DNA of 64,000 nucleotides, from the IMG/VR virus record IMGVR_UViG_3300032030_000021, positions 29,122-93,121 of that record; one strand, given 5' to 3'. Below are positions 4,017 through 62,081 of this stretch, one piece after another. The notes beneath the pieces were generated by a model. That model worked only from the letters and a program-made list of their open reading frames with translations. It made no database searches and was not told the DNA's origin. Each line of letters starts with the position of its first letter. The first letter of the stretch is position 1. This DNA is from a virus (Duplodnaviria > Heunggongvirae > Uroviricota > Caudoviricetes). Both the position numbers and the translations under genes were made by a program.

Positions 4017-4029
4017 ATAAAATGAAATT

Positions 4030-20392: not shown

Positions 20393-20401
20393 AAGAGACA
20401 C

Positions 20402-21330: not shown

Positions 21331-21635
21331 GAACACTCAGCGAATCTATAATAGGACGGAAAGGAACTCGACCACAAACCAATATTATCAAGGATTGTCG
21401 CGATATGATTTCTAGAATAGACCATTCTCCATGGAAAGAAGCTATGGTGATGGCAACGAATTATTATGATGTCTTAATACAAAATAGATACCAATATCCC
21501 GAGGAAGTCCGGCAAATTATAGATGATTCTATAAACGAATGGTCCGGTAAGGTTTTATCTAAGATATCTAGCACCGACATTATGATACAGGCTATCAGGA
21601 GCATTTCCAATCTAGCTAAAAAACAAAGATCATGA
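21327..21635 (+). CDS. tagged-family protein
   Basis: Starts MRTLSESIIGRKGTR. Confidence 0.6.
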   Translation: MRTLSESIIGRKGTRPQTNIIKDCRDMISRIDHSPWKEAMVMATNYYDVLIQNRYQYPEEVRQIIDDSINEWSGKVLSKISSTDIMIQAIRSISNLAKKQRS

Positions 21636-22042
21636 AATCTATAACCGAATCTATAATAGGAAGAAGAGGAGTTTCCGGAAAACTACACAAATTCGACGAT
21701 TTAAAATACGGGGATTTTGTGGTTATTGATATGCCTGCCGAACAAAAAATGTTCGATTGCCTGTATGTACCGGAATATATTGCTATGAAAGTAATTTCTT
21801 ATCCTGGACCTACGGATGATTTTGGTCGATTTATATGTGTTGATCACAACGGTAAGGATATATCTTCTTTCCGGGCCGATAAGTTTGTAGATGACTTTCC
21901 GGATTGCCCCGAAGATGATGAATTTTTTTATAGTAAAATAGTAAATAAAATCGGCCATACGGAAGAATATGTTTCTTTAAAGGACAGAAAAGACGTGATA
22001 AATCTTTTTAAGAAATATAATTTAATAGGATTCCATCGCTAA
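21632..22042 (+). CDS. tagged-family protein (same subfamily)
   Basis: Starts MKSITESIIGRRGVS. C-terminus INLFKKYNL. Confidence 0.6.
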   Translation: MKSITESIIGRRGVSGKLHKFDDLKYGDFVVIDMPAEQKMFDCLYVPEYIAMKVISYPGPTDDFGRFICVDHNGKDISSFRADKFVDDFPDCPEDDEFFYSKIVNKIGHTEEYVSLKDRKDVINLFKKYNLIGFHR

Positions 22043-22158: not shown

Positions 22159-24048
22159 ATGATTCTTAATGAAAACGAACAGAGATATCGCAATCTGATT
22201 TCCGAAGAATTGCATGTCACTGATGAAAGAAAACTGAACTGGATGGCTCAAATGGCCAATGTTCATGCCATCAAAGAAGGCTTGCAGCCCAATAATGTTA
22301 GTGCGGATCATGGCGGCATTTATGCTACTCCTCTGAACACATTAGGTATTGGCAATCCTTTCATGCCTCAGGGTCTTGGAATGAACAATCCTAATCTTGG
22401 TGATGGTATTGGCAACACCGGTGCCGATTTCCACAATCCTGCTTATGTTAATGGTTCCGGTGATGTTCCTATGTCTACTCTTTCTATGGCATTGGAAGTT
22501 GCAGCCGTTACCGTTGGTTTCGACTTGGTCGCTACCGTCGTGGCTACCGGCCCTATGGCTATGTTGACCTTCGTTGATTATCCTTATGCTGGTGGTAAAC
22601 TCGGTCACATTGGCGAGACCTGGCAAGATGGCATTGGTCCTGACAACGAGAACAAACCCATTTACATCATGTTGAAGGGTGACATGGAAACCTCTATGAA
22701 GTTCCGCGACAATGAAAACGTAGAACCCGGCCGTACTACCGTGACGATCACCGGTGACACCGGCAAGTTCATTGGTATCTATATGGGCAACTCCCGTATC
22801 GACGGTTCCGCAATCTTCCAAGTGAAGAGTGTGAAGGAAGACGATAAAGATATTTCTATCGCTCAAATGTTCCAGAAGGAAGGCGTGTTCACAACCGATG
22901 CTAAAGATAAAGATGGTAATGATATCGTATTCGGTAAAGCCGGTACGCCGGGTTCCGGTACCGAAGGTGAAGATGACTATGTTGCTCCTACCGAAGGTAC
23001 TAATGTGAGACTGATCCCGGAACTGGTGAAAGGTATCACCGATCACATCCAGTCATTCTCTAACTTCTTCGGAAACAGAGTTGAGAATGAAGATGGTTCT
23101 TATAGCGTTGTTCCTTCCGACGATCCTATGACCAGAGCTCAAAACGAAACCGGTACTGGTAACACTATTGGTGTTCGTATGTTCTCTAAGATGATCCAAA
23201 TGGGTAACTATGAAGTGACCGGTGCTGTTACTCGTCAGCAGCTTCAAGATATGCCTCTGTATGGCATCGATGTTATTGGTGGTGTATTGGAAGCTTGTCA
23301 GGCCGAGATTTCCCAGGCTCTGAACAACCGTATCATCGACCGCGTTATGAAACTTGGTGTTGAGAACTACAAAGTACAGAAAGCCGTTCAAGGCTGCGAC
23401 TTCAACCTCTACCTCGGCAACGTAGTTAAGGAAGATGGTTCCGCTAACCTGTACAAACCTCTTAACGAGTTCAAGGCATACAACAAGTTCCGCGATTTGA
23501 ATGGTAAAACCGTTCCTTCCGTGAACATTCCGAACGCTACTAAGAACTCCAGCGCCGAGAACGTTACTACTCACCAGAGACGTATTGCTTCTCGTTGTAT
23601 GGCCGCTTCTAACTTGATCTCCAGCGTTACCCGTAGAGGTCGTGCTCATTGGATCCTGACCAATGCTCAGATCCTGACCGCTCTGCAGGATTGCTCCGGT
23701 TATGTGGTAGCTCCTATGGTTAACAATCTGGTTCAAGGTGGTGAAGAGAGCTTGTACTACGCAGGTTCTATTGCCGGTATGCAGATCTATGTTGATCCTT
23801 ACATGCTGTGGGAAGACACTCGTATCTGCGTTGGCCGTAGAGCTACCGTTACTAACAACCAAGTTCAAGGTTCCGGTGTGGTCTTCATGCCGTACATCCT
23901 CGCAGACACTGTGCAAATCGTTGCAGAAGGCACCATGGCTCCTAAGATGCTGGTGAATAGTCGTTATGCAATTGTAGACGCAGGTTTCTATCCCGAGCAG
24001 AATTACTATACCTTCATGGTGGAAACTGATTCTGATTTCATTATCTAA
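22159..24048 (+). CDS. major capsid protein, T4 gp23-like
   Basis: SMALEVAAVTVGFDLVATVVATGPMAMLTFVDYPYAG resembles gp23 VMGMVRRAIPNLIAFDICGVQPMNSPTGQVFALRAVYG. C-terminal HWILTNAQILTALQDCSGY...YYAGSIAGMQIYVDPYM resembles gp23 NFIIASRNVVNVLASVDTGISY...VFAGVLGGKYRVYIDQYA. Upstream region has AAATAAAT boxes. Confidence 0.7.
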   Translation: MILNENEQRYRNLISEELHVTDERKLNWMAQMANVHAIKEGLQPNNVSADHGGIYATPLNTLGIGNPFMPQGLGMNNPNLGDGIGNTGADFHNPAYVNGSGDVPMSTLSMALEVAAVTVGFDLVATVVATGPMAMLTFVDYPYAGGKLGHIGETWQDGIGPDNENKPIYIMLKGDMETSMKFRDNENVEPGRTTVTITGDTGKFIGIYMGNSRIDGSAIFQVKSVKEDDKDISIAQMFQKEGVFTTDAKDKDGNDIVFGKAGTPGSGTEGEDDYVAPTEGTNVRLIPELVKGITDHIQSFSNFFGNRVENEDGSYSVVPSDDPMTRAQNETGTGNTIGVRMFSKMIQMGNYEVTGAVTRQQLQDMPLYGIDVIGGVLEACQAEISQALNNRIIDRVMKLGVENYKVQKAVQGCDFNLYLGNVVKEDGSANLYKPLNEFKAYNKFRDLNGKTVPSVNIPNATKNSSAENVTTHQRRIASRCMAASNLISSVTRRGRAHWILTNAQILTALQDCSGYVVAPMVNNLVQGGEESLYYAGSIAGMQIYVDPYMLWEDTRICVGRRATVTNNQVQGSGVVFMPYILADTVQIVAEGTMAPKMLVNSRYAIVDAGFYPEQNYYTFMVETDSDFII

Positions 24049-24174: not shown

Positions 24175-25737
24175 ATGAAAGAATTAGATTTTGATTATCC
24201 GGAATTTGAAAAATTAAATCCATCTAATTGTAGAGAAGCATCTATTAGTATTCATTATCCCGAATTTAAGGAATATTTATACAACAAATATCCAGACATA
24301 CCGTTTCCTGAAAAAATATATTTATTTTATCATAACAAGGGCAATCCCGGGATTTGTAAGATGTGTGGAAATAAGACGAAATTTATTGGATTTAAGAAAG
24401 GATATAGGGAGTTTTGTTCTTACGAATGCATGAATTCTTGCGAAGAAATACAAGAACGCAAAAAAATTACATGTCGAAAAAATTATGGCACAGACAACCC
24501 TATGGGTAGTCTTGAGTTAAAAGAAAAAATAAAACGGACATGTTTAGAAAAATATGGAGTAGAGAATTGCTTTCAGTCACCGGAGCTCATGAAAAAAGCT
24601 CGAAAAACATGCAAAAGAAAATACGGGACGGAATATGCTACTCAGTCCCTGTCTGTAAAAGATAAAATATTAGAATCTAGAAGACAGAATATATTAAATA
24701 ATGATGACAGTATATTAGATATTATTCACACAGACAATCATTCCGATCTTTATATTATGAAGTGTCCGGATTCCGGATGCAATCTGTGTTCTAAAAAAAG
24801 ATATGAAATAAAATCTAATATATTATATGATCGTTGCAGATTAGGAGTAGACCCGTGCACTATAAGAACTCCAGTGGGGTCCCATATCAAAAATACGGGT
24901 CTTGAAAAATTTGTTCAAAATATATTAGATGAGTATCATATACATTATATAGCTAATGATAGAAGAATTTTGGATGGGAAAGAATTAGATTTATATATCC
25001 CGGATAGAAAAATAGCTATAGAATGCAATGGTGTATATTGGCATTCTAAATTAGATATGTTTTATCATTATAATAAGTGGCAATATTGTAAAGAAAAAGG
25101 AATTCAACTACTGTCGGTTTGGGAAGATTGGGTGACTAATAAACCGGATGTAATTAAAAATATTATATTGTCTAAGTTGAATATATATGATAATTTTATT
25201 GGTGCGCGAGAATGTGCGGTGGAGCCCGTATCCGCAAAAGAGGCGCGAGTGTTTTTAGATGAAAATCATATTCAAGGTTTTTGTAGTAGCACTATAAGAT
25301 ATGGATTATATTATAAAAATGAATTGGTGGCTTTAATGTGCTTCAAAAAAACTAATAATCCATCTTCTAAAAGGAATATTGGGTGGGAGTTATTAAGGTT
25401 TTGTTCGAAAATAGGATGGCACATAGCCGGGGGTGCTGGCAAGTTATTGAAATACTTCCGGGAAGATCATCCTGAACCAATTATATCATTTGCGTCTCAT
25501 GATATCTCTAATGGAAAATTATATGAAACACTCGGATTTCGGCATACTAGTGAAATTAAAACCTGCTATTGGTATGTCCATAACCAAACTCATAAAAGAT
25601 TTCATCGATCCTCATTTACTAAAAAAGAATTGGTAAGAAAAGGATATGATTCCAAGCTTACCGAAGAACAAATTATGATAAACTCAGATTATTTTAAAAT
25701 ATATGATTCCGGACAAACAAAATACATTTTGGAGTGA
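24175..25737 (+). CDS. free-standing homing-endonuclease-like protein (Vsr/DUF559-like nuclease domain plus zinc ribbon and tandem K-x-T-C-x-x-K-Y-G-x-E-N modules)
   Basis: Contains CKMCGNKTKF, three ~33-aa TC..KYG.EN repeats, and ELDLYIPDRKIAIECNGVYWHS (Vsr FVHGCFWHGH-like) followed by WEDW. Confidence 0.55.
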   Translation: MKELDFDYPEFEKLNPSNCREASISIHYPEFKEYLYNKYPDIPFPEKIYLFYHNKGNPGICKMCGNKTKFIGFKKGYREFCSYECMNSCEEIQERKKITCRKNYGTDNPMGSLELKEKIKRTCLEKYGVENCFQSPELMKKARKTCKRKYGTEYATQSLSVKDKILESRRQNILNNDDSILDIIHTDNHSDLYIMKCPDSGCNLCSKKRYEIKSNILYDRCRLGVDPCTIRTPVGSHIKNTGLEKFVQNILDEYHIHYIANDRRILDGKELDLYIPDRKIAIECNGVYWHSKLDMFYHYNKWQYCKEKGIQLLSVWEDWVTNKPDVIKNIILSKLNIYDNFIGARECAVEPVSAKEARVFLDENHIQGFCSSTIRYGLYYKNELVALMCFKKTNNPSSKRNIGWELLRFCSKIGWHIAGGAGKLLKYFREDHPEPIISFASHDISNGKLYETLGFRHTSEIKTCYWYVHNQTHKRFHRSSFTKKELVRKGYDSKLTEEQIMINSDYFKIYDSGQTKYILE

Positions 25738-27353
25738 TGGAGATACCAAATATTAGCAACCTTACATCCAAAGAACTTCAGGGTAAGTGGTTTGAAAAGA
25801 ATTATCTGGAGTTTTATCAGCATCTTGTAAATACATATCCAAATCTCCAAAAATTCACTGAAAAATTGTATTGGTATCTCCACGATATCAAAGAAACACC
25901 GAAATGTACTTGCGGAAAACCTCTGAAGTTCCGGAGTCTCAAGGTCGGATATTCCGAGTTCTGTTCGGCCAAATGTTCTAATTCTAATCCGGAAAAAATC
26001 AAAAAGACTAAAAATACATGTCAAGAACGATATAGATCCTCTTCTCCGGCCGGCAATAAAGACATCCAAGATAAAATGAGGAAAACATGTCTGGAAAAGT
26101 ATGGTGTAGAAAATTATCTAGAAATTTCCCATCGAACGGGAAGTCTTTCGGAAGAATCTAAGCAAAAAATGAAAGAAACCTGTATAGAAAGATACGGTGT
26201 GGAAAATGTGATGAAGCTTCCGGAATATCAAGTTATTGTCAATGGAAATAAAGATTATAAAAAACTATCGGAAAAAGCTCGAGAGGCTCGAAAAAACCGG
26301 GTTATGAATCAAAATCCGGATATAATATCTATAAAAAATGGTTTATGGACTTGCCGGTGTCCCCATCCCAATTGTACCAAATGCGATAAAAAATCATATG
26401 AAATAACGGCTCAAATGTATCATGATCGCCGAAGAGATCATACGGAGCCTTGTACTATACTTTTAGCACCTTCACCGAATAACAATAAAAATACTTCTTT
26501 AGAAATTTTTGTACGGTGTTTATTAGAAGAGCATAATATAGAATATATTGCAAATGATCGATCTATATTAGGAGGCAAAGAACTAGATATATACATTCCG
26601 GATCGGAAAATAGCCATAGAATGCAATGGTGTTTTTTCACATAGCTCTAGATATAAACCTAGAAATTATCATTATGAAAAATATAAAGCTTGTTCGGAGC
26701 GGAACATCCGTCTTATAAGTATCTGGGAGGACTGGGTTCGGAATAAGCCGGAAATTGTCCGGAGTCTGATTTTAAGCAAGCTGAACATATATGAGAACCG
26801 TATAATGGCTCGTAAATGTGAGGTGAAAGAGATAAATAGTAAAATAACAGGTAAATTTTTAGAAGAAAATCATATTCAAGGAAAAACTTCTTCAAATATA
26901 CATTTGGGCCTATATTATAAAAACGAATTGGTGGCGGTGATGCTGTTTGGAAAAAAACGAATGTGCTCCGGGAATAATAAAACAGCTGGGTGGGATTTAA
27001 GCAGATTTTGTACTAAAAGAAATATTTGTGTGATTGGGGGTGCGGGGAAGTTATTAAGTTATTTTATAAAACGGTGGTCTCCGGATATGATATATTCGTT
27101 TGCATCATGTGATATTTCTAATGGAAATCTTTATAAGTCTTTAGGGTTTGTAAATATAGGCCATTCCTCTTCATATTGGTATATAAACGAGCGCACCCTT
27201 CAAAGATATCATAGAAGTTCCTTTACTAAAAAATCCTTGATAAAACGAAACTGGGCTGATGGAACGGAAACTGAAACTGATGTAATGAATAATCATGGAT
27301 TCTTGCAAATCTATGATTCCGGTACGGAAAAGTGGATACTGAAGATTATCTAA
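25734..27353 (+). CDS. paralog of the upstream Vsr-like endonuclease
   Basis: Same architecture (ELDIYIPDRKIAIECNGVFSHS, ISIWEDWVRNKPE). ATGA overlap with the upstream paralog. Confidence 0.55.
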   Translation: MMEIPNISNLTSKELQGKWFEKNYLEFYQHLVNTYPNLQKFTEKLYWYLHDIKETPKCTCGKPLKFRSLKVGYSEFCSAKCSNSNPEKIKKTKNTCQERYRSSSPAGNKDIQDKMRKTCLEKYGVENYLEISHRTGSLSEESKQKMKETCIERYGVENVMKLPEYQVIVNGNKDYKKLSEKAREARKNRVMNQNPDIISIKNGLWTCRCPHPNCTKCDKKSYEITAQMYHDRRRDHTEPCTILLAPSPNNNKNTSLEIFVRCLLEEHNIEYIANDRSILGGKELDIYIPDRKIAIECNGVFSHSSRYKPRNYHYEKYKACSERNIRLISIWEDWVRNKPEIVRSLILSKLNIYENRIMARKCEVKEINSKITGKFLEENHIQGKTSSNIHLGLYYKNELVAVMLFGKKRMCSGNNKTAGWDLSRFCTKRNICVIGGAGKLLSYFIKRWSPDMIYSFASCDISNGNLYKSLGFVNIGHSSSYWYINERTLQRYHRSSFTKKSLIKRNWADGTETETDVMNNHGFLQIYDSGTEKWILKII

Positions 27354-31256: not shown

Positions 31257-32759
31257 ATGTCAACATTTATCATTATTGCGGGAGCTGTAGCTCTATTTCT
31301 GATTCTGATCTTCGCATCTTACGTGAAGACTCCTCCTCAAGTAGCCCTAATTATCTCGGGTATTTCTAAGACCCCCAGGGTTTTGATTGGTAAGGGAGGT
31401 ATTCGTGTTCCTTTCTTCGAGAGATTGGATAAAGTCTTTCTTGGGCAGACTTCAGTGGATATCAAGACCTCCGTACCGGTTCCTACTAAAGATTTTATTA
31501 ATGTTCGGGTAGATGCTGTTGCTAAGGTCCGGGTAATGAATACTCCGGAAGGTATTCGATTAGCTGCTAAGAACTTTCTTAATATGACAGAAAGAGATAT
31601 TGCTAATCAGATTCAGGATTCTCTAGAAGGTAACATGCGAGAGGTAATTGGTTCTATTGGACTAAGAGAGTTGAATACCGATCGTGATGGTTTCTCCGAT
31701 CAGATTGCTAAAAAGGCCGCTCCGGATATGGAGAAACTTGGTATTGAAATTCTTTCTTGCAATATTCAGAACATCACTGATGAAAAAGGTTTGATTTCCG
31801 ACTTGGGTGCTGATAATACATTTGCTATCAAGAAAACAGCGGCTATCACGAAGGCTAACGCGGAAAAGGAAATTGCTATTGCTCAATCAAATGCTAAGAA
31901 AGAAGCTAATGATGCTGAGGTTAAAAACGAAACCATAATTGCGGAACGTCAAACCGAGCTAGCTGTCAAGAAAGCTGACCTCCAAGTCAAGGCGGACACC
32001 CAGAAAGCCGTGGCGGACGCGGCATATCAGATCCAACAACAGGAACAGCAGAAAACCGTCAATGAGAAAACCGTAGAAGCCGAGATGGCTAAACAGTTAC
32101 TTACTCAACAGAAGCAAAAAGAGGTCAACGCGGCGGCAGTGGAGGCTCAGACTGAAAAAGCTCGTAAGGAACAAGAACTGACTGCTGAGCAAGTCAAAAT
32201 TCAACAGAATAAGTTAGAGGCCGTAATTCAGAAACAAGCGGATGCGGATAAGTATAAGCAAGAAATCGATGCCAAGGCCGAACTTGAACAGAGAAAACGT
32301 CGTGCTGAGGCCGAAGCATATGAGGCGGAGCAAAACGCTAAAGCTGTAATGGCTATGGCCGAAGCCGCTCAATTCAAGATGGAGCAGGAAGCCCTGGGTA
32401 AGAAAAAACTTGCGGATGCCGAAGCCTATAGTATTATGGAAAAGGGTAAAGCGGAAGCGGAAGCATTAAGACTCAAAGCGGAAGCCTATAAAGAATATGG
32501 CGATGCCGCCAAGGCCCAGATGGTCATCGAAAAACTTCCGGAAATTGCAGCCGCTGTTGCTCAGCCGATCTCAACCATCAAGGATGTCCGGATTTATGGT
32601 TCCGATGGAAGCGGTATCAACCAGCTCTCCGGCAATGTCCCAGCCGTGATCAAGCAGACGATGGATACCGTGAGCGATGCTACCGGTGTAGACATGAAGG
32701 AGATCGTGAAGAGCTCCACACTGGAAACCGCCGCCAAACGTCCTCTGGCTAACGAGTAA
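31257..32759 (+). CDS. flotillin / SPFH (band-7) domain protein
   Basis: N-terminal TM helix, SPFH-like core (GGIRVPFFERL...VDIKTSVPV..TKDFINVRVDAV), then a long A/E/K/Q-rich coiled coil (AEAEAYEAEQNAKA...) typical of the FloT/YqiK flotillin domain. Confidence 0.65.
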   Translation: MSTFIIIAGAVALFLILIFASYVKTPPQVALIISGISKTPRVLIGKGGIRVPFFERLDKVFLGQTSVDIKTSVPVPTKDFINVRVDAVAKVRVMNTPEGIRLAAKNFLNMTERDIANQIQDSLEGNMREVIGSIGLRELNTDRDGFSDQIAKKAAPDMEKLGIEILSCNIQNITDEKGLISDLGADNTFAIKKTAAITKANAEKEIAIAQSNAKKEANDAEVKNETIIAERQTELAVKKADLQVKADTQKAVADAAYQIQQQEQQKTVNEKTVEAEMAKQLLTQQKQKEVNAAAVEAQTEKARKEQELTAEQVKIQQNKLEAVIQKQADADKYKQEIDAKAELEQRKRRAEAEAYEAEQNAKAVMAMAEAAQFKMEQEALGKKKLADAEAYSIMEKGKAEAEALRLKAEAYKEYGDAAKAQMVIEKLPEIAAAVAQPISTIKDVRIYGSDGSGINQLSGNVPAVIKQTMDTVSDATGVDMKEIVKSSTLETAAKRPLANE

Positions 32760-34397: not shown

Positions 34398-34856
34398 ATG
34401 AAACATATAAGCAAATCTATTACGGAGTCTATTATAGGAAAGAAAGGATCGGATAATATTGATATTATAGCCGATATATTTTTAAAATTTTTCGGAAGCT
34501 ATCTGAAAAAACCGGAAATTGGCGAAATAGCGTTGTATATAGATGTTGATAAAAGCCATTATACCGGCCAAGACTTCCAGTATGATTTCGCATTTGTGAG
34601 GAACGATATTGGTACATATAGGAAAATAGCGGCGTCTTTTGCTAATGCTATCAATGGAAATATCTATAAAGAATCTTCCGGATTCAAAGGTGGAGTTTGG
34701 TATTGGGATCCGGAAACTATTATAGAAATACCGAATGTGAAATTTTATATAGGGAGAAGGCTCGGAAACAGAAGACACCCTAAGGACATATCCAATACGA
34801 CTTATATCAGCATATCAAATAAGATGTTGTGGATGAAAATATATGAAATGTTATAA
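34398..34856 (+). CDS. tagged-family protein with 4-aa insertion in the tag
   Basis: Starts MKHISKSITESIIGKKGSD. Confidence 0.6.
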   Translation: MKHISKSITESIIGKKGSDNIDIIADIFLKFFGSYLKKPEIGEIALYIDVDKSHYTGQDFQYDFAFVRNDIGTYRKIAASFANAINGNIYKESSGFKGGVWYWDPETIIEIPNVKFYIGRRLGNRRHPKDISNTTYISISNKMLWMKIYEML

Positions 34857-34998: not shown

Positions 34999-35769
34999 AT
35001 GGATATTTATGCAAAATACCTAGGTGAAACTCCGGAAATCATAAATCCTAACAAGAACGGTCGTCCGTTTTTTATACCGGAAGACGTTATTGATAATCTA
35101 GATTGGTCTTTACAAAACAATGGTTTTGATTCCATATGCTGGGAGGGAAACATAATAACCCAGATATGGGAGAATAAATATGGGTGGTTTGACTTTTCTA
35201 AAAATCTTATAGATATCGGAGCCGGATGCGGCGAATATCCGATATTTGCCGGATTTGCTCATTCGTATGCATTCGAACCCAATAAAACCAAGCAATGCTT
35301 CTTGTATGCCAATATGTTATGCCATGATAAAATTCATAACATAGATGTATTGCCATATTGTATAGGAGATGTAGAAAAATCGGAAACATTCAATGGCTGG
35401 ACTTCCGATAAAGATACCGATTTTGGCGATACCGGAGACCTGGTTGAGTATCGGACATTAGATAGTTTTAATTTTGAAAATATCGGGTTGATCAAAATAG
35501 ACATTGAGGGATTTGAATATTATGCTATAAAATCCGGATTAGGCACCATTATACGGAATAACTATCCTCCGTTGTTAATAGAAGTGTGGAATGATGCGGA
35601 TTTAGATGGTTATTTCGGAGAAAGGGCTCCGATATATAAAGAACGCCGGAATCATCTTTTAAATATATTAGCCCGACTGGGATATATAATGATCAATGAT
35701 CCGGACTTAGGCGATTGGGAAACCAGATTTTTTATACACCGCACTCAACCCGGAAGCTATAAACTATGA
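34999..35769 (+). CDS. FkbM-family SAM-dependent methyltransferase
   Basis: IDIGAGCGEY...FEPNK...TLDSF...IGLIKIDIEGFE is the FkbM signature. Confidence 0.6.
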   Translation: MDIYAKYLGETPEIINPNKNGRPFFIPEDVIDNLDWSLQNNGFDSICWEGNIITQIWENKYGWFDFSKNLIDIGAGCGEYPIFAGFAHSYAFEPNKTKQCFLYANMLCHDKIHNIDVLPYCIGDVEKSETFNGWTSDKDTDFGDTGDLVEYRTLDSFNFENIGLIKIDIEGFEYYAIKSGLGTIIRNNYPPLLIEVWNDADLDGYFGERAPIYKERRNHLLNILARLGYIMINDPDLGDWETRFFIHRTQPGSYKL

Positions 35770-37541
35770 TAGAATTATATTATAATCCAAAAGATTCCCG
35801 GCATATCCTAGTGATGCACGACGGGACTATGAAGGAAGTTTCCGATCGAAAAGGCACTCATCGGACATCCGAGATTCTTTTATTAGAAAAACATCTGAAC
35901 AAAATACCGGACTATCAGTTTCTGCCATCATTCACCGGCATACAAAGGCCGATGGTGTTTTTAGAAAAGAAGAAGATCAAGGACAAATGGGTATACTATT
36001 GTGTGAGGGGGTTATGGCATGAAATCAAGACTTGGTGCAAGGAATCCGGCATCATATGTAATGGGGTGTATAATATCTCCGATTACGGCAAGCTCGATAA
36101 AAAACCGGACACTTCTTTCCAGCTAACCAATTTTGATATGTCCGAAGAGTCTTTTATGGAGTATGTGAATAATTGGGGCCTGAATTTAGATCTGCGGCCA
36201 TATCAGTATAAAGCCATATGGACTATACTTCATTACCGGCAGTCTATGTCTCAACTAGCCACCCGAGCGGGCAAGACCCTGATAGCCTATGTCATATTCC
36301 GATATATGCTAGAGCACGGAGCTAAGAAGATTCTGATGGTGGTCCCGAATATCAATCTAGTAAGACAGGGTGTGAAAGATATGAAGGACTATCAGGAGTA
36401 TTTCAAGTCCGAAGAGGTCTGGGCGCAAGGCGAATACTGCCAATGCGCTAATCTGACCATCGGAACATTCCAGTCCCTGATCAAGAGATGCGTGCCCGGC
36501 AAGAAATATAAGCCGAATAAACATTACGATCCGCATTTTTTCGACGGATATGATGTAATATGTATAGATGAATGCCATAAGGCGGATTGCGATTCCATTA
36601 AGACCATCATGAAACAGGAATTTGTCCGCGATGCTAAGCTTATCTTCGGGTTTTCCGGAACCATTCCGGATGCTAATACTATCGAGAACTATGGTGTGCA
36701 GGCTATCCTAGGTCCGATGATACAAGATATCTCTACTATGGAATTGGTAGATGCCGGGTATCTAGCCAAACCCATTGTGAGGCAAATCAGAATGCACTAT
36801 GAAGATTCGCCGGAGTTATTGGATAAATATATTAAGTATGGAGAATACTTATGCGGCCGAGATACCGGAGAGAAACTAGAAAGTCCTGATATTGGAATTA
36901 ATAAAGTTAAATCCCTTCCTATTGTGCTCCGTGAATCTAAAGGTCTATATGAGAAAGAAGAATATAAGCAGATCTTAATAGATATGTGCAAGGCCAAAGG
37001 AGCCGCTCTCCTGAATCTGGAGCAGCTCCTGGCTATGAACTCTCGAGGAAAGATAGATACTATTATGCGGATATTGTCTGACTGGCCGGATAAGAACGGT
37101 ATCGTGTTTGCTCATAATGAAGAATACGTGGATTACTTATATAAATATCTATCAGAGACTCTAGATCGTCCGGTATATAAGATAAAAGGATCCACCACCA
37201 ACAAGAAACGGGAAGCTATTAAGAAGGCAATGAATGAAATCGATAAGAATGCGGTGTTGGTAGCTAGCTATGGATGTGTGGCTACCGGATTGACATTCTC
37301 CAATATCGATTGGTGTATCTTCGCCCAATCCTTCAAGTCTCCGATTCTGGTCATGCAGTCCATCGGAAGAGGACTGCTAAAGACCGAAGAGAAAGACCGG
37401 TTTATTGTTTATGACCTTATAGATGTATTTTCCACCGGAAGACTGGAGAAACATGGTAAGGAAAAAACTAAGCATTATGCCAAGGTCGGATATGAGCATT
37501 CTACTCGATCCGAGAACCTGAAATATATTCCTATATTTTAA
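35766..37541 (+). CDS. superfamily-2 DNA/RNA helicase (DEAH-box type)
   Basis: RPYQ (Q-motif), ATRAGKT (Walker A), ICIDECHKA (DECH), plus C-terminal helicase motifs. Confidence 0.7.
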   Translation: MIELYYNPKDSRHILVMHDGTMKEVSDRKGTHRTSEILLLEKHLNKIPDYQFLPSFTGIQRPMVFLEKKKIKDKWVYYCVRGLWHEIKTWCKESGIICNGVYNISDYGKLDKKPDTSFQLTNFDMSEESFMEYVNNWGLNLDLRPYQYKAIWTILHYRQSMSQLATRAGKTLIAYVIFRYMLEHGAKKILMVVPNINLVRQGVKDMKDYQEYFKSEEVWAQGEYCQCANLTIGTFQSLIKRCVPGKKYKPNKHYDPHFFDGYDVICIDECHKADCDSIKTIMKQEFVRDAKLIFGFSGTIPDANTIENYGVQAILGPMIQDISTMELVDAGYLAKPIVRQIRMHYEDSPELLDKYIKYGEYLCGRDTGEKLESPDIGINKVKSLPIVLRESKGLYEKEEYKQILIDMCKAKGAALLNLEQLLAMNSRGKIDTIMRILSDWPDKNGIVFAHNEEYVDYLYKYLSETLDRPVYKIKGSTTNKKREAIKKAMNEIDKNAVLVASYGCVATGLTFSNIDWCIFAQSFKSPILVMQSIGRGLLKTEEKDRFIVYDLIDVFSTGRLEKHGKEKTKHYAKVGYEHSTRSENLKYIPIF

Positions 37542-37633
37542 TGCGCAAATTCGCGCTAAATTCAAGCGATCGTATCTTAGATGACCAGTTATATCACTTA
37601 AAGTGTGATCGCTTGTTATATCGCAAATATGAG
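37541..37633. repeat. conserved intergenic element copy 2 (GCGCAAATTCGCGC..TTCAAGCGATCG..35 nt..GATCGCTTGTTATATCGCAAATATG)
   Basis: Inverted repeat AAGCGATC/GATCGCTT flanks a ~35-nt spacer. Lies between the helicase gene and a tagged-family gene. Confidence 0.6.
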
Positions 37634-37695
37634 AGTTTTTGAAAAATATTATATGATCCCGGAAAGATTTTGATTATTTAATCAAATATGTTAAT

Positions 37696-38520
37696 ATGAA
37701 GACAATAGTAGAATCTATAATAGGAAGAAGAGGGTCTAATAAAAAATTATATATAGTAAGTCCGAAAGGTTCGGATAACTATTTATATTGGAATAGTAAG
37801 TTTACTTATAATGGAGTTGCGGATAGTCGAGGGTACTTTTATTTTGTTTTGACAAAAGATGAACTCCAAAAATTTCTTCCGCAGGAGCCGGATACTAGCA
37901 TTTATTTAGTCGATGACGATACCGTAGATTATAAGAAATTGGAACAAGATGTGGAAAAAACAAAAGATCTTTTAAATAATCCTCTTATATACTTAAAAAA
38001 AGTAGACGTAATGTCTATCAGCGAATCTATAATAGGACGAAAAGGTGTGCCGAAAGAAAACGGGACCGTATGGGGAATGCTTTCCCCGCTTTTCGACCCG
38101 CATGTAGAAACCACACACGATATCAATCATTTGGTATATATATTTACGGCCCCGATTATGAAGGTTAAAAAAACATATACCAATATATTTAATATCATGT
38201 GTGATGCAATAACACTATTCAGACATTCCGCTTATTTATTTCCCACGGCAGCATGTGCCGAAAAAGATTACTTATATGTATTAAATGAGGTAAGTGTGAA
38301 TCTTAATGTAATTAGAGATGGGCGGATTGCCGGTTCTTGGACCGAATCTATCCAAAGACTGGAGGAACGGAAAGAAGTATCTTCTAAATTGAAAAAGATA
38401 AGCAGGAAACTCATCGATTTTGATCTCTCGGGAATAAATGAAATCGCATTCCGATACTATTTCGATAATAAGAAACAACCGATGACATTAGAAATGATTA
38501 ATATAGATATTGCTATATAA
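37696..38520 (+). CDS. tagged-family protein, in-frame tandem fusion of two tagged modules
   Basis: Starts MKTIVESIIGRRGSN. A second complete tag MSISESIIGRKGVPK starts in frame at nt 38011 with no stop between them. Confidence 0.55.
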   Translation: MKTIVESIIGRRGSNKKLYIVSPKGSDNYLYWNSKFTYNGVADSRGYFYFVLTKDELQKFLPQEPDTSIYLVDDDTVDYKKLEQDVEKTKDLLNNPLIYLKKVDVMSISESIIGRKGVPKENGTVWGMLSPLFDPHVETTHDINHLVYIFTAPIMKVKKTYTNIFNIMCDAITLFRHSAYLFPTAACAEKDYLYVLNEVSVNLNVIRDGRIAGSWTESIQRLEERKEVSSKLKKISRKLIDFDLSGINEIAFRYYFDNKKQPMTLEMINIDIAI

Positions 38521-38536
38521 CTTAAAAAGGATCGAT

Positions 38537-38920
38537 ATGAAATCTATAAAGGAATCTATAATAGGAAGAAGGAATACATCAATACAGAGGACATTAATAA
38601 TCATACCGGTACATGAAGATGCACATTTTATGTATGATTCGATTAATTCAAGTAATGGTATAATTCGAACAAGATCTAAGAATGGTTGGGATATTTTTGT
38701 TTTATCTATCCGGGATGCCACCTATGATTTAATCGTAAATATTAGAAGTAAATATACAAAAATATGTATTGCGGAGCTCCCTGTAAAAAATGTTATAGAT
38801 TTGTGTTATAAAATGCATGTGGGCATATTATTCAAGAGCAATGCTCTTAATAGCATTCCTCCGGAATTCAAAGAAATCACGAAAGAGGATTGTATAAAAT
38901 TATTAAAACAAAATAAATAA
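38537..38920 (+). CDS. tagged-family protein
   Basis: Starts MKSIKESIIGRRNTS. The track ORF starts upstream at 38510. Confidence 0.6.
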   Translation: MKSIKESIIGRRNTSIQRTLIIIPVHEDAHFMYDSINSSNGIIRTRSKNGWDIFVLSIRDATYDLIVNIRSKYTKICIAELPVKNVIDLCYKMHVGILFKSNALNSIPPEFKEITKEDCIKLLKQNK

Positions 38921-38924
38921 AAAC

Positions 38925-39326
38925 ATGAAACACATCAGCGAATCTATAATAGGGAGGAAAGGAGCGGGGCAGTTTCAGTCTATAATAATTGTTCCATTGG
39001 AATCGGATTATATGACTTTCAGTAATAATATATCTTATGTGGTCCCGTTTGATTTTGGGTCTGGTAATATATGGAAGGGGTTTGCTACGATATGGGATAA
39101 TGCGGAAGATATTTTCCGGAACATCATATGGCCACAAACTAAGATATTTATATCCGGCATGCCTGTGGATGATTTTATCAAAGAATTTACTCGCACCAAC
39201 AAACGTTCTCGATCTATAATGACAGTTAAAGTTAATGCTCAGAAAAGTTATCTTATAAATCCGCCGGAGGGAGCCAGACAGATAACCTTAGACGAACTTA
39301 GAAATATTGTCAAAAAATATAAATAG
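38925..39326 (+). CDS. tagged-family protein
   Basis: Starts MKHISESIIGRKGAG. Confidence 0.6.
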   Translation: MKHISESIIGRKGAGQFQSIIIVPLESDYMTFSNNISYVVPFDFGSGNIWKGFATIWDNAEDIFRNIIWPQTKIFISGMPVDDFIKEFTRTNKRSRSIMTVKVNAQKSYLINPPEGARQITLDELRNIVKKYK

Positions 39327-39330
39327 AAAA

Positions 39331-39777
39331 ATGAAAGACTTCAAAAAATATATAACCGATAAGAAAGAGATCTCCGCCGGATTCTTATTTGAGACTCCGG
39401 AGGGATTTTTGTTAGTCCATCCCACCGCTAGGGCTAAAAGCAAGGGTAATTGGGATATCCCTAAAGGACATATTGAAACCGGAGAATATCCGCTAGAGGC
39501 GGCTATTAGGGAATTAAAAGAAGAAACCGGACTGGATTATAATCCGGACTGGGAAACGGACTTTTTAGGACAATTCAACTATACTCTTACTAAAGATCTT
39601 TTATTATATCATCTTCATTGTCCGGTGGTACCAGATGTCAAGAAATGCAAGTGTACTTCTTATTTTGATCTTAACGGCAAAGAGACTCCGGAAAATGATG
39701 ATTTCATGATCACTAAGGAATTAGAATATACGTTTCATTCTATGCAGAAGATATTAAAAAAATTGGGACTGCTATGA
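39331..39777 (+). CDS. NUDIX hydrolase
   Basis: Nudix box GHIETGEYPLEAAIRELKEETGL. The first ATG is at 39331; the track ORF started at a TTG at 39307. Confidence 0.7.
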   Translation: MKDFKKYITDKKEISAGFLFETPEGFLLVHPTARAKSKGNWDIPKGHIETGEYPLEAAIRELKEETGLDYNPDWETDFLGQFNYTLTKDLLLYHLHCPVVPDVKKCKCTSYFDLNGKETPENDDFMITKELEYTFHSMQKILKKLGLL

Positions 39778-40127
39778 AAACTATAAAAGAATCTATAATA
39801 GGGAGGAAAGGAGTGCATTCTCCGGAGTTATATATATTTCATCCGTGTGCTGAAGATTATGATTTAGCTTTAGATATTTTGCCGAAGGAACATATGGTTA
39901 AAACAAAGGATGGGCCGTTTTTTTATTGTATAGATAAAATTGAATTAGAACGGTATCTTAGGAAAGTAGGACAACATAAACTTATCGGGCCTAATATACA
40001 CAGAAAATTAAACGGGTCCAGTACTCTGTATAAGGTAATAGGTTCCTCCGATCTCGATCAAATAAAGGATTTATTAAAAACTCACCCGTTTGTTGAATTA
40101 AAGAATTTGGTGATCCGTATTGCTTAA
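39774..40127 (+). CDS. tagged-family protein
   Basis: Starts MKTIKESIIGRKGVH. Confidence 0.6.
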   Translation: MKTIKESIIGRKGVHSPELYIFHPCAEDYDLALDILPKEHMVKTKDGPFFYCIDKIELERYLRKVGQHKLIGPNIHRKLNGSSTLYKVIGSSDLDQIKDLLKTHPFVELKNLVIRIA

Positions 40128-40142
40128 AATAAACATTGAAAT

Positions 40143-40670
40143 ATGCAAAATAAAATACTAACTATAGTCTTTATAATCTTATATGCGGCGGTAGCATTCG
40201 TCTCTACGTACCATGCCATCTTCTTCTTCGGACTTTCCAACCCTATGTGGTTGGCGGTGATCCTGGCGATCGCCTTCGAGGTAGGCCAGGCCGTGGTTCT
40301 GTTTACCATCCTGACTTCTAATATCAAGCAAGTGATGAGTTGGGTGCTAATGGGGATCTTAACAATCGTACAGTGTCTGGGTAACATTTTTAGTTCGTAT
40401 AAATGGATGCTTCTACATAATGCCGACCAGATACAATATTTTACCAAGTCCGTATTGTTTTTCGTACAATCTCCGAATCCGGAATATAATTATGTGATGA
40501 TCTCCTATATCACCGGAGCGATTCTTCCGATAGTAGCTCTCTGCTTGACTAGTATTGTGGCTAAGATGATCAAAGGATCTCCGGCGGAGTCTCCGGCGGA
40601 ACCTATTATAGAATCTCCGGCGGAACCTGAAAAAGACGTAGAAGAAGACGTATTTATACCGAGTAATTAA
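40143..40670 (+). CDS. integral membrane protein (about 4 TM) with C-terminal (E-S-P-A-E-P) repeats
   Basis: Hydrophobic segments ILTIVFIILYAAVAFV, WLAVILAIAFEVGQAVVLFTIL, WVLMGILTIVQCLGNIF and ILPIVALCLTSIVA. The tail is SPAESPAEPIIESPAEP. Confidence 0.5.
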   Translation: MQNKILTIVFIILYAAVAFVSTYHAIFFFGLSNPMWLAVILAIAFEVGQAVVLFTILTSNIKQVMSWVLMGILTIVQCLGNIFSSYKWMLLHNADQIQYFTKSVLFFVQSPNPEYNYVMISYITGAILPIVALCLTSIVAKMIKGSPAESPAEPIIESPAEPEKDVEEDVFIPSN

Positions 40671-40684
40671 ATATAATAAGGATT

Positions 40685-41074
40685 ATGAAACACATCCATG
40701 AATCTATAATAGGTAGAAAAGGTACAAATTCAATTAAATTATGGCTGCTATACCCTGTAGTCAAGGATTTTTATATCGCATTAGAAGTGTTGCCGAGGGA
40801 CTGTAGGATTTATTGGGATAATACGTCTTTGTTTTGTGTAAACCGCCAACAATTAAAAGAGTTTTTTGATAATCTTTCAAATGATAATATGTTTACCGAC
40901 CCGAATAGTGCTCTATTTGAGATAAATCCACACTATTTAAGAAATATTAAAGATGTGAAAGATTGGATAGTCGGTTTATCTTCCGATAATTGGAAAGATT
41001 TTGATTTAATATATAAAGCTGAAGAATTAAATCAGATAACTGTCGATATTCCAAAATATATTAAAAGTTTATGA
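40685..41074 (+). CDS. tagged-family protein
   Basis: Starts MKHIHESIIGRKGTN. Confidence 0.6.
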   Translation: MKHIHESIIGRKGTNSIKLWLLYPVVKDFYIALEVLPRDCRIYWDNTSLFCVNRQQLKEFFDNLSNDNMFTDPNSALFEINPHYLRNIKDVKDWIVGLSSDNWKDFDLIYKAEELNQITVDIPKYIKSL

Positions 41075-41592
41075 AACATATAAATGAATCTATAATAGGA
41101 CGGAAAGGATCTATGTGGTCATTGGATATACCAAAAAAGGCGGAAGATCTGGAGTACGTAAAATCATGGAAGACTCTTCCCGGATATGCCGCGGAATTCA
41201 ATATAGAAATTCCAAGAATCAAGCAAAAGGGATTGGATGATGTAACGGATTTCATATATAGTATGATATTCGAGAACCGGAAAAATATAGCTAACCCGAC
41301 ACAATGGATTATGAAAGATTTAGGCTTATCAAATTATGTTCATAATTTGTTATGTGATACTAGATTTCTTTATAATGATCCGAACAGCAGTACATATACA
41401 GTAAATCATCAATATTCTATTCAATATAGAAGTCCGTTGTTTGACAAAAAAGATAAAGATATCTGGTATGATATATACAAAATAGTTTGTAAATTTGATA
41501 ATAATATCGGCTTGGATGATATTAATCTTCGGATTATGTACGTATGGAATACTCATAATGAATTAGATCAAATAACAGTATTTTTAAATTAA
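41071..41592 (+). CDS. tagged-family protein
   Basis: Starts MKHINESIIGRKGSM. Confidence 0.6.
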   Translation: MKHINESIIGRKGSMWSLDIPKKAEDLEYVKSWKTLPGYAAEFNIEIPRIKQKGLDDVTDFIYSMIFENRKNIANPTQWIMKDLGLSNYVHNLLCDTRFLYNDPNSSTYTVNHQYSIQYRSPLFDKKDKDIWYDIYKIVCKFDNNIGLDDINLRIMYVWNTHNELDQITVFLN

Positions 41593-41701
41593 ACATGAAA
41601 GAAACCAAAGAATACGGTAATTGTGATATGATTTGCTGGGATTGCGAATCTTCCGCGCATTGTTGGTATTTTGAGTCTTTATTGAAAGAAAATGAAGAAT
41701 T

Positions 41702-42127
41702 ATGAAACATATAAATGAATCTATAATAGGAAGAAAAGGAATTACCAGTATTCCGAAGCTGGAAAATCATGATATTGTTAAATTAGACAATGATCATTAC
41801 TACATGGTTGTCTTAGATGAATATGAGATGAAACTCGCTAAACTAGATTTTTTTAAAAGCCAGGTCACGGAAGGGATCCTTTTAAGATATGAAGCATCTA
41901 GCCGGTCTTGGTCTTGGCAACCAATAAATGAATATAGTCTGCTGGACTTAAAAATAAACCCGAAATTTAAAAGCACAATATCACTAGACATATGTGAAGT
42001 ATATCGGAGTCTTTCGGCTATCACTACTAAATATAACAATCATCTATATATGTGGTGTGATGAAGAAAATATGAAAGAAAAAATCAAAAAAGGATACGGA
42101 GTTTATAAATTATTGTGGAAAAGATAA
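41702..42127 (+). CDS. tagged-family protein
   Basis: Starts MKHINESIIGRKGIT. Confidence 0.6.
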   Translation: MKHINESIIGRKGITSIPKLENHDIVKLDNDHYYMVVLDEYEMKLAKLDFFKSQVTEGILLRYEASSRSWSWQPINEYSLLDLKINPKFKSTISLDICEVYRSLSAITTKYNNHLYMWCDEENMKEKIKKGYGVYKLLWKR

Positions 42128-42151
42128 CTTATAAGAATCAATATAGAAGAT

Positions 42152-42577
42152 ATGAAGACATTACAAGAATCTATAATAGGAAGAAAGAATTCGAGCTCGG
42201 TTCTAAAACATGATCGCACGGGGCTTTATGAGGGTGATATAGTCTATTTTAAATGCCATCCGTATAAACCATATGTAGTTATATTAAATCCTGATATATA
42301 TAAAAAATTCCTGTTACCGAGATCATTGAAAGATTATGATTGTACGGAGGGGGTCCTCATAACCCCCGGTAGAGATGGTTCTTATGGATTTATGGTTCTA
42401 TCGGATTATGATAAAAATCTTAAATTTACGGAAAACTCCGATCCGTGGAACATAACTGAAGTAAAAAGAGGATATATTGGATCACATCGGCTTGATAAAT
42501 TATTAAATGATATAGATGGCATATATGACATATCGAGAGGTTTTAAAACCGTTTTTGAAAACGGGAAATGGCTATAA
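42152..42577 (+). CDS. tagged-family protein
   Basis: Starts MKTLQESIIGRKNSS. Confidence 0.6.
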   Translation: MKTLQESIIGRKNSSSVLKHDRTGLYEGDIVYFKCHPYKPYVVILNPDIYKKFLLPRSLKDYDCTEGVLITPGRDGSYGFMVLSDYDKNLKFTENSDPWNITEVKRGYIGSHRLDKLLNDIDGIYDISRGFKTVFENGKWL

Positions 42578-42650
42578 AACGGCAGCATAATCAATACCAC
42601 ATCTAAAAACATAGAATCTTCCAGATATATTTCTAAAAACCGGAAATTAT

Positions 42651-47770: not shown

Positions 47771-48169
47771 ATGAAACATATACATGAATCTATAATAGGG
47801 AGAAAAGGAATCGATAAAAACCGAACAGATATGTTAATGCCCGGGGATATTGTGGAATATGACTTTCGAGACACACATTTTTGGAGATTTATTCCGAAAC
47901 GATATATACCCGATGGTGTTTGGAAAGATATCTTAAAAGCAAACCCCCCAAAAAACTCCAATTTATTGGTAGCTCTGGCTTGGAGCAATAATAAATCCTA
48001 TTATTGTACTTGGGTAGATCTTGGAAATATTATCAGACCCGACGAATTGGTTGGTAATAGATTTGGACAGGTATGGAGACAGAAAGATGTATGGGTGTAT
48101 GAAAAACCGGAGGACTTGCGCATAATGTTAAATGATCTGGAAACGGCTAGAATAATCAAAGAAGATTAA
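47771..48169 (+). CDS. tagged-family protein
   Basis: Starts MKHIHESIIGRKGID. Confidence 0.6.
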   Translation: MKHIHESIIGRKGIDKNRTDMLMPGDIVEYDFRDTHFWRFIPKRYIPDGVWKDILKANPPKNSNLLVALAWSNNKSYYCTWVDLGNIIRPDELVGNRFGQVWRQKDVWVYEKPEDLRIMLNDLETARIIKED

Positions 48170-48170
48170 A

Positions 48171-48575
48171 ATGATATCTATCAAAGAATCCATCATAGGA
48201 AAAAAGGGGTATATCAGTGTACCTACATTGCAACAAGGAGATATTATAATTACTCGGCGTGATGATATATACATGGTACTGACGGATCAAGATTGTTTGA
48301 AAAAAATTCTAAATCCGGATAGTTTCAGATATTATGATATGTCAAAAGGGGCATATGTGCGCGGCGGTGGTGGAGGCGCAGGTTTCATGGATCTTAGTTC
48401 CTTTAATGACAAATTAGAAAATACCGATGGTTCTGACGTTTACGACATATTCCAAGTATGGAGGAATCCCCGGAAACAGAATAATATCACTTCCAATGAT
48501 GATATTAATCAAATTATTCAAACAGAAAATTTAAAACTCTTAAAAAAATCTTATAAATTAATCTGGGAGAGATGA
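48171..48575 (+). CDS. tagged-family protein
   Basis: Starts MISIKESIIGKKGYI. Confidence 0.55.
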   Translation: MISIKESIIGKKGYISVPTLQQGDIIITRRDDIYMVLTDQDCLKKILNPDSFRYYDMSKGAYVRGGGGGAGFMDLSSFNDKLENTDGSDVYDIFQVWRNPRKQNNITSNDDINQIIQTENLKLLKKSYKLIWER

Positions 48576-48919
48576 GACATATCAGCGAATCTATAATAGG
48601 GAGAAAAAATGCGCCTGTTGCCGAATATTGGATAGAATTCGGTGGATTGGATCCCAAGTTACTTAAGCAATATGCGAAAGGCGATATATCTTTCACGGAT
48701 CTGACTATGGGATTAGTAGCGGAAGAGATCACATACACCGATCCAAAAGACAATTTCACGGAAACCGATATGCTTCAATTCGCTAAACAATTTATAAACA
48801 AGAAGTATAAATTCCCGAAAATGGTATATGCTCGCGTTATGGATAAACATAAAGAAGTAATAGATACTATCTATGGCCGGGATTTTCAATACGATTTAGA
48901 TAAATATTGCAAGAAATAA
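48572..48919 (+). CDS. tagged-family protein
   Basis: Starts MRHISESIIGRKNAP. Confidence 0.6.
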   Translation: MRHISESIIGRKNAPVAEYWIEFGGLDPKLLKQYAKGDISFTDLTMGLVAEEITYTDPKDNFTETDMLQFAKQFINKKYKFPKMVYARVMDKHKEVIDTIYGRDFQYDLDKYCKK

Positions 48920-49332
48920 TGAAACACATACAGGAATCTATAATAGGAAGAAAATCGGCTTCGATAAGCAAATCGTCTATATCGGATGGGGATATTTTAG
49001 AAACCCGAGCCGGAGTGGCATTTGTATATATATCCGAAGATACTTGGGATAAAAATCTGAGCGGTCATTTTCCTGGTGGAGCTCTCGTTAATCCGGATGA
49101 TCCCAATTTTGATTTTGACTCGGTTACCAATAAATTTGATTATTGGCATGATGACCTGACGGGATCCGAAAGACATTTTGATATTGTCAAGATATACAAA
49201 GTTGATAATGATCAAAAACAGGCATATTATACGGCACTCAAAATAAAAGTCCTCCGGATTAAACGGTCTATATTAAAATCATATATCGAGAATATTATAA
49301 GTCATGCAACCCCAGTATCTATAAATAAATAG
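48919..49332 (+). CDS. tagged-family protein
   Basis: ATG at 48919 gives MKHIQESIIGRKSAS. The track ORF starts 4 codons earlier. Confidence 0.6.
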   Translation: MKHIQESIIGRKSASISKSSISDGDILETRAGVAFVYISEDTWDKNLSGHFPGGALVNPDDPNFDFDSVTNKFDYWHDDLTGSERHFDIVKIYKVDNDQKQAYYTALKIKVLRIKRSILKSYIENIISHATPVSINK

Positions 49333-60991: not shown

Positions 60992-61018
60992 AAGGACCTC
61001 CGATGAGGTCCTTTTTTA
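60992..61018. terminator. bidirectional terminator between queE (+) and the minus-strand tagged-family cluster
   Basis: AAGGACCTCcgatGAGGTCCTT has T-runs on both sides and sits between convergent stops at 60986 and 61016. Confidence 0.7.
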
Positions 61019-62078: not shown

Positions 62079-62081
62079 GTC

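Follow-up and report, generated by a model that had tools for sequence, protein, structure and literature searches.

The gene analysed here lies in a 64,000-nucleotide (nt) stretch of phage-like DNA with 38% GC, called the window below, which covers positions 29,122 to 93,121 of the virus record IMGVR_UViG_3300032030_000021. It is an open reading frame (ORF) of 274 amino acids (aa) at 37696-38520 (+) that contains two copies of a short peptide tag in a single frame, with zero stops between them. The tag has 13 residues with the consensus M-[KR]-x-[IL]-x-E-S-I-I-G-[RK]-[KR]-G and heads nearly all of the small accessory genes. Each of the two copies is followed by a cargo module, which we call M1 and M2, and in some relatives another module, MX, follows M1. 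The features of the locus are the following, where an arrow marks a presumed cut:

37696-38520, + strand: fused ORF made of tag 1, M1, internal tag and M2 (ORF list, sequence, five identical contig copies, orthologs P0001-P0005).
37696-37737, + strand: tag 1 (MKTIVESIIGRRGS), whose codon 6 (37711-37713) precedes the presumed cut of a candidate protease site, I-V-E↓S, from the alignment of 27 tags.
37738-38010, + strand: M1 cargo, codons 15-105; the M1-bearing proteins found are all fused, either to M2 or to MX.
37996-38002, + strand: run of seven A (A7) immediately 5' of the junction, seen in the sequence and invariant in 13/13 fused loci.
38008-38046, + strand: fusion junction and internal tag (V-MSISESIIGRKG), with ATG 38011 as a possible internal start (alignment of 13 loci).
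38023-38025, + strand: candidate protease site I-S-E↓S after codon 110, from the register of the internal tag.
38047-38520, + strand: M2 cargo, codons 118-274 and stop, a predicted alpha/beta domain (stand-alone orthologs, AlphaFold2 model).

Tag 1 occupies codons 1-13 of the fused ORF (MKTIVESIIGRRG) and the second tag codons 106-117 (MSISESIIGRKG), with its ATG at 38011-38013 and its Glu at 38023-38025. A preliminary description of the locus had reported a second, complete tag starting in frame at 38011. The tag is indeed in frame and no stop intervenes, but it is not complete: when it is aligned in register with the 26 other tags of the window it is one residue short, the slot of the usual Met being filled by GTA (Val, 38008-38010) and the ATG occupying the slot of Lys/Arg-2, which gives V-M-S-I-S-E. 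Scans of 37400-38700 for sigma-70 promoters and terminators gave hits at chance level only. The spacer upstream of the ORF contains an imperfect inverted repeat.

Regarding the tag family, a six-frame scan of the window found 27 copies of [IL]-x-E-S-I-I-G-[RK], 26 of them at ORF starts and a single internal one, that of the fused ORF. In 271 kb of related DNA 182 of the 199 tags are N-terminal. At one mismatch or fewer the window has 25 copies of the core 14-mer GAATCTATAATAGG, against 0.08 expected from shuffles, an abundance far beyond chance. The cargos behind the tag fall into 18 unrelated BLAST clusters. The 27 tagged small ORFs, about 87-217 aa long, are grouped in five or six arrays, at 5933-6385, 18563-22042, 34398-34856, 37696-42577 and 47771-49332 (+) and at 61000-62450 (-), and the major capsid gene is immediately preceded by an array of nine. 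Neighbouring tagged genes of the window usually meet in an ATGA overlap. Pfam and PHROGs scans of eight tagged proteins found nothing significant, and a full-text literature search with the tag motif returned only irrelevant matches. The isoelectric points of the tagged cargos go from 4.2 to 9.3 with no trend, which gives no support for a uniformly basic, DNA-associated class.

The tag is conserved in two ways. As a peptide, [IL]-x-E-S is invariant in 27/27 window tags, with x variable. As DNA, the codons GAA, TCT, ATA and ATA are used 26, 22, 25 and 26 times of 27, against 68, 28, 35 and 35% in the long genes of the window, and for the ATA bias of the tag Ile codons P is about 1e-10. This codon bias goes beyond coding need and fits a role of the tag DNA as a recombination joint. 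However, the Gly of the tag is written with four codons and the Arg as AGA, AGG, CGA and CGG; Arg and Lys can stand in for each other, and the x positions are free to vary. Judging from this synonymous variation, the tag is constrained as a peptide too.

Some further tag-like sequences were observed. The ORF at 6391-6852 (+), immediately 5' of the prohead protease gene, starts with MKTITESILDRING, a diverged tag which the motif scan missed. The tag of 34398-34856 (+) has a partial internal duplication (MKHIS-KSITESIIGKKG), as though two tag 5' ends had been joined, and this fits slippage or recombination inside tags. Finally, a copy of the 14-mer with one mismatch lies at 40602-40615 (-), within the membrane-protein ORF 40143-40670 (+), where the + strand reads ...AEPIIESPAEP...; it may be either chance or a tag remnant.

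The fusion of the two modules is real and conserved. The identical 274-aa protein is encoded on five contigs, and the fused orthologs P0001-P0005 have 78-100% identity (78-88% for P0002-P0005). Furthermore, the in-frame junction, that is, the A7 run followed by GTAGAYGTA ATG TCT ATY, recurs in 13 loci of ENA, JGI and Logan assemblies, which represent six sequence-distinct lineages and at least 12 samples. A sequencing error, which the preliminary description had named beforehand as the outcome that would speak against the fusion, is excluded by the 13 concordant loci and the five identical contigs. A megablast search with 35000-41000 and a tblastn search with the 274-aa protein gave no match, and hence no cultured relative, in 50,697 phage records, and an 18-nt junction scan of metagenome contigs gave four chance matches, all of them in unrelated ORFs.

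The A7 run at 37996-38002, directly upstream of the junction, could suggest that the modules are truly separate, either because the run was miscounted or because slippage of the polymerase or the ribosome on it restores a product with M1 only. Actually, with A6 the sequence would read TTA AAA AAG TAG, placing a stop 5 nt before ATG 38011 (then acgtaATG). Nevertheless, neither the A7 run nor the in-frame junction differs among the 13 loci, which were assembled independently in different projects and lineages. The out-of-frame TAG comes merely from the GTA-GAY (Val-Asp) codons and is found also in the paralog M1' described below, there is no downstream stimulatory structure, and a run of seven A is short for efficient transcriptional slippage. 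We therefore consider it very improbable that the fused frame is an artefact or is bypassed by slippage. A homopolymer error (A7 for A6) in particular was rejected, because the run is invariant in all 13 fused loci.

The same preliminary description had proposed that two genes of the family were fused by loss of a stop, and the relatives bear this out. In L009, L012 and L014 a stand-alone paralog of M1, which we call M1' (110 aa, MKTIVESIIGKRG...PPYMKQVDIKSVL and stop), ends with ...YMKQVDIKSVL and a TGA that shares bases with the ATG of the tagged gene behind it (ttATGA). Compared with this arrangement of M1' and its next gene, the fused junction is without 14 nt (alignment A2, GTAGATATAAAAAGCGTATTATGAGACAC versus GTAGACGTA-ATGTCT). 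The 14-nt loss takes out KSVL, the stop and the Met-Lys of the following tag, and the two frames become equal. Together with the stand-alone M2 genes of relatives, these alignments show that the origin of the ORF is stop loss. The ancestral state was two genes with overlapping stop and start (ttATGA), and in the M1 lineage a net deletion of 14 nt set the downstream tag and its cargo in frame. Such an accident is easy, because tagged genes are usually joined by ATGA overlaps. This is like an ordinary stop-loss gene fusion, in that a small deletion at a ttATGA junction brings the downstream gene in frame, but unlike it in that the junction keeps a start-of-gene signal, the tag, and is conserved across lineages and re-used with different partners.

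These partners could be followed in the relatives. Stand-alone M2 (169-172 aa; P0006-P0012, P0014, P0015) starts with a canonical tag (MRHI[SN]ESIIG...) and is present in many relatives, always at the same site, with a ResIII/DEAD helicase on its 5' side and a NUDIX gene on its 3' side. L001-L004 lack M1 and have M2 directly behind the upstream spacer and tag of M1. In L005, L007, L008 and L042-44 a different cargo, MX (IEIWPNPYHL...), stands behind the same M1 and junction (KKVDVMSI[SG]ESIIGRKG), and after it come a stop and a separate M2; MX is itself a stand-alone tagged gene in L029. Thus M1', M2 and MX can each be found as tagged genes of their own, and the internal I-S-E↓S separates the modules where they are fused. 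A close stand-alone M1, of the same type, was not found among the M1-bearing proteins, where only the diverged M1' stands alone. The fusion junction is therefore old and shared with a different downstream module, which the preliminary description had missed, as it had missed the joints formed by the tags.

The M1-MX fusion was seen in two lengths: 188 aa, ending with ...GHFFLACYK and stop (L008 536-1102, L042-L044), and 210 aa (...GHFFWLAINNDLL...; L005 3372-4004). The shorter one suggests a frameshift close to the MX end, and it is seen in several samples.

Regarding selection, the ratio of nonsynonymous to synonymous divergence (dN/dS), with comparisons between fused copies included, was 0.20-0.29 for M1 and 0.09-0.20 for M2. 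Both modules are under purifying selection and therefore the fused gene is not decaying. In the AlphaFold2 model of the fusion, M2 is predicted as a confident alpha/beta domain, with a predicted local distance difference test score of 70-92 over residues ~140-274, and the linker formed by the tag is probably disordered according to the same model. A Foldseek search of the model against the PDB gave no match at E<=0.001.

A second, independent internal tag was found in a 513-aa ORF of L029 (1471-3012, -). It reads ...GLSEYINESIIGRKG..., has no Met and precedes a module weakly similar to M2, and as a sequence comparison it supports the tolerance of internal tags. The N-terminal part of this ORF, which is fused to the M2-like tagged module, is Lys-rich and has a hydrophobic segment. 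Its paralogs (L034 2-553 and 1053-2183, +) end naturally with ...GLSDYINESVE or ...LLESFEI and thus carry a tag-like [LI]xES at their own C-terminus.

The position of the tags also coincides with the limits of similarity between relatives. When 35766-42600 was compared by blastn with L001, L005, L009, L012 and L014, all the block edges fell inside tags, at 37730-37734, 38016-38045, 39773-39812, 40684 and 41110-41112. The blocks shared with L001, L012 and L014 end at 37730-37734, within tag 1, and those shared with L001, L005, L009 and L014 begin at 38016-38023, within the internal tag. Furthermore, the kinship of M2 alleles cuts across fused and unfused status: the fused M2 of the window is closest to the free M2 of L001 (dN 0.036), and the fused M2 of L012 to the free M2 of L005 (dN 0.044), whereas between the two fused M2 copies dN is 0.144 and dS 0.73, with a dS of only 0.33 between their M1 parts. 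Because the block edges lie inside the tags, the tag-coding DNA is the recombination joint of a cassette array, in which the internal tag still takes part. The junction was inherited, and the cargo behind it was exchanged or deleted by homologous recombination in about 40 nt of tag-coding sequence. The outcomes of such exchange were M1-M2 (in two M2 alleles), M1-MX with a separate M2 behind it, and M2 by itself.

A comparable system is the shuffling by promoter and stem-loop elements (PeSLs) in T4-type phages such as phi1/RB49 (PMC2839356, PMC4122927). There, too, small accessory genes are flanked by many copies of a short conserved sequence, joints at which homologous recombination inserts, deletes or replaces the single-gene cassettes of hyperplastic regions. 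However, PeSLs themselves are intergenic and about 100 bp long, whereas the joint found here has about 40 nt and lies inside coding sequence, so recombination always preserves the tagged reading frame. Because the repeat is inside the coding sequence, an in-frame fusion, once a stop has been lost, is carried along and re-partnered.

This DNA-level exchange raises the question of whether the internal tag does anything in the protein. The fusion could be merely tolerated as a single 31-kDa protein, with the internal tag as a functionless linker that is kept by recombination or gene conversion among dozens of tags. The synonymous sites of the tag core are conserved far above the expectation from codon usage, the clustering of breakpoints in tags shows ongoing exchange at the DNA level, the linker is predicted to be disordered and, as no close stand-alone M1 was found, M1 might work only as an N-terminal domain. 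Nevertheless, the x position of the internal tag varies (S, D, N, G) while I, E and SIIGR are fixed, as in N-terminal tags, and the Arg/Lys and Gly codons vary synonymously, which points to constraint at the peptide level; besides, both modules function as separate genes elsewhere. We consider a neutral two-domain protein improbable.

What the tag may do is suggested by two other genes of the window:

6981-8396, + strand: T4-type prohead protease (Peptidase_S77) with a scaffold-like C-terminal extension, the presumed processing enzyme (Pfam S77 E=3.7e-11, S80 2e-6).
22159-24048, + strand: Gp23-type major capsid protein (Pfam Gp23 E=1.3e-22), which shows that the head is of T4 type.

The protease has 471 aa, and its scaffold-like C-terminal half contains 23 [LI]xE motifs, five of them [LI]xES. 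With these motifs and a fivefold tandem repeat at about residues 270-330, the extension resembles a scaffold or self-cleaved domain that was fused to the protease. The sequence AIKE↓G (residues 38-41) is found in the capsid protein. Read as sequence motifs, the [LI]xES of the protease tail and the AIKE↓G of the capsid protein support a T4-like cleavage specificity with Ser or Gly at P1'. The nearest database relatives of the capsid protein are Prevotella Lak megaphages, at about 31%, and others infect Tenacibaculum and Chryseobacterium; from these relatives the host is probably a member of the Bacteroidota. The phage is a large one, related to T4 and Lak.

In T4 the protease gp21 cuts after L/I-x-E, and propeptides of 10-19 residues target the internal proteins into the prohead (PMC9026906). 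The T-even internal proteins have only the leader in common, and the two loci that hold their genes vary from phage to phage (PMC12373910). In the T4 record IPII and IPIII begin with MKTYQEFIAE, IPI with MKTFKEF and Alt with MELITE, and the tag described here begins with M-[KR]-x-[IL]-x-E; the elements shared with the T4 leader are M-K-T-hydrophobic-x-E-x-I, too short for statistics, and residue 7 is Ser, not Phe. An Asp in the cut position prevents processing in T4 but leaves targeting intact.

By analogy, then, the tag would correspond to the capsid-targeting propeptide found on Alt and on the internal proteins of T4. It would steer the protein into the prohead, and the T4-type prohead protease would cut it after the invariant Glu ([IL]-x-E↓S). 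The fused ORF would in that case be a small polyprotein, loaded through tag 1, in which cuts after E6 and E110 would free cargos of about 12 and 18 kDa; independent translation of M2 from ATG 38011, whose old start context is retained, may occur besides. The idea of the preliminary description that one precursor gives two cargo proteins is thus plausible on this analogy. As a whole, that the ORF is a genuine and maintained fusion of two cassettes by stop loss, with tags that recombine, that the tag is a targeting and cleavage signal and that the product is a polyprotein is the reading we prefer, with modest confidence.

Like the tagged proteins, IPI, IPII, IPIII and Alt of T4 are small proteins, otherwise unrelated, with one short N-terminal leader in common (M-K-T-[YF]-[QK]-E in the internal proteins, M-E-L-I-T-E in Alt) that holds the L/I-x-E (PMC9026906), and the window encodes both a Peptidase_S77 protease and a Gp23-type capsid protein. 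There are also differences. The conserved block of the tag runs seven residues beyond the Glu (SIIGRKG), with no second Glu at position 10, and at least 27 tagged genes are counted in 64 kb, against three in T4 and about 10 or more across the T-even phages. The probable Bacteroidota host is a further difference. Regarding fusions, a natural example in tandem, with a targeting sequence inside the protein, is not known to us from T4-type phages. The fusions of IPIII or of the targeting sequence that have been described are all engineered (PMC9026906).

The giant phages phiKZ, 201phi2-1 and SPN3US offer a second comparison, because many of their head-internal proteins are cut C-terminal to Glu by a diverged T4-type protease, and some inner-body proteins are cut at several sites into more than one fragment (PMC9026906, PMC5694885, PMC7411985). 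However, the motif there is S/A/G-x-E, and the proteins are large and do not share a 13-residue N-terminal tag. For their ejection proteins a cassette array with repeat joints at the DNA level is not described.

Several points weigh against a targeting signal and a polyprotein. Conservation within the tag is highest in SIIGRKG, which is C-terminal to the presumed cut and would remain on the mature protein, unlike the targeting sequence of T4. The likeness to the T4 leaders spans about six residues, so that convergence or chance is possible. The number of tagged genes, some of which lie beside replication genes, is far above that of any known internal-protein set, and homogenisation of the tags at the nucleotide level could keep the internal tag intact without function. 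M1 and the tag linker have low confidence in the AlphaFold2 model, and therefore the picture of two independent domains rests mainly on comparative data. Finally, the ATG is kept in all fused lineages behind an A-rich, start-like sequence, and this fits internal initiation equally well.

The last point deserves attention, because ribosomes could start also, or even mainly, at ATG 38011. M2 would then be made separately, with a near-normal tag, and the long product would be minor or additional, which is compatible with processing. The preliminary description had proposed to look for a ribosome-binding site upstream of 38011, but this check is uninformative, as Shine-Dalgarno (SD) pairing is not used here: an SD-like motif stands before 8% of the 61 true starts and before 10% of the 359 internal ATGs. 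A genome without reliance on SD fits a Bacteroidota-type host. True starts are marked instead by A-rich (50% +/- 11 A), poorly structured leaders. By this measure the 20 nt upstream of 38011, with 55% A and 75% A+T, fall in the true-start range and reach the 99th percentile of the 359 internal in-frame ATGs. The ATG is retained in all six fused lineages, and the region derives from what was a genuine translation-initiation region at an ATGA overlap. However, the local folding energy at 38011 is -8.0 kcal/mol, which corresponds to the 7th percentile of the true starts and is typical of an internal site, and the 60 nt upstream show no excess of conservation over the rest of M1. The density of variable sites upstream of the ATG is low, yet other 30-nt stretches of M1 match it. 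The conservation of Met 38011 over so small a divergence is statistically meaningless, and the independent internal tag of L029 has no Met. On balance we regard internal initiation as rather unlikely, although it keeps real weight.

If the preferred reading of the tag as a targeting and cleavage signal is correct, these genes would be by far the largest known repertoire delivered by a capsid, at least 27 in 64 kb against three in T4. The internal proteins that T4 delivers from its capsid are anti-restriction factors. We can go one step further and suggest that the tag does two jobs, being at the same time a capsid-targeting and cleavage signal as a peptide and the recombination joint of an integron-like array as DNA, with M1-tag-M2 as a natural polyprotein; this we put forward tentatively, as possible rather than probable. 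Were it true, dozens of different small proteins would be loaded and injected by the phage, and one targeting event would deliver two cargos, freed by the protease at the internal tag, with M2 or MX as the partners of M1.

The context is a variant of two known things, namely the leader-tagged internal proteins of T4 type and the repeat-mediated shuffling of cassettes, and it differs from them in that the repeat lies within the coding sequence. Whatever the tag does as a peptide, a repeat of this kind as the joint of cassette shuffling extends the idea of the PeSLs and the T-even hyperplastic regions to a Bacteroidota-type phage, and it explains how an in-frame fusion is both propagated and re-partnered. 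If the tag is a targeting and cleavage signal, the fused ORF would also be a ready-made experiment on whether this signal is read internally and whether one precursor gives two cargos. Regarding annotation, ORFs of this tag family are worth checking for internal tags before they are called single-domain proteins.

Apart from the tagged genes, the window encodes some other functions. A 368-aa adenylosuccinate-synthetase-like ORF is found at 16937-18043 (+), scoring 54 bits against a PurA family cut-off of 402, and near it, at 13666-14187 (+), there is a dUTPase/dCTP-deaminase-like ORF. As far as sequence similarity goes, this pair is reminiscent of the PurZ-type base-modification modules of 2-aminoadenine genomes. 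At 24175-27353 (+) two adjacent large ORFs have DUF7487 domains, the second of them also with a Mom-family domain, and judged by these domains the pair could be another DNA-modification function. Finally, 330-5373 (+) and 31257-32759 (+) hold two ORFs with BspA-type leucine-rich repeats/DUF285 (1228 and 447 aa) and an SPFH/flotillin-like protein (500 aa).

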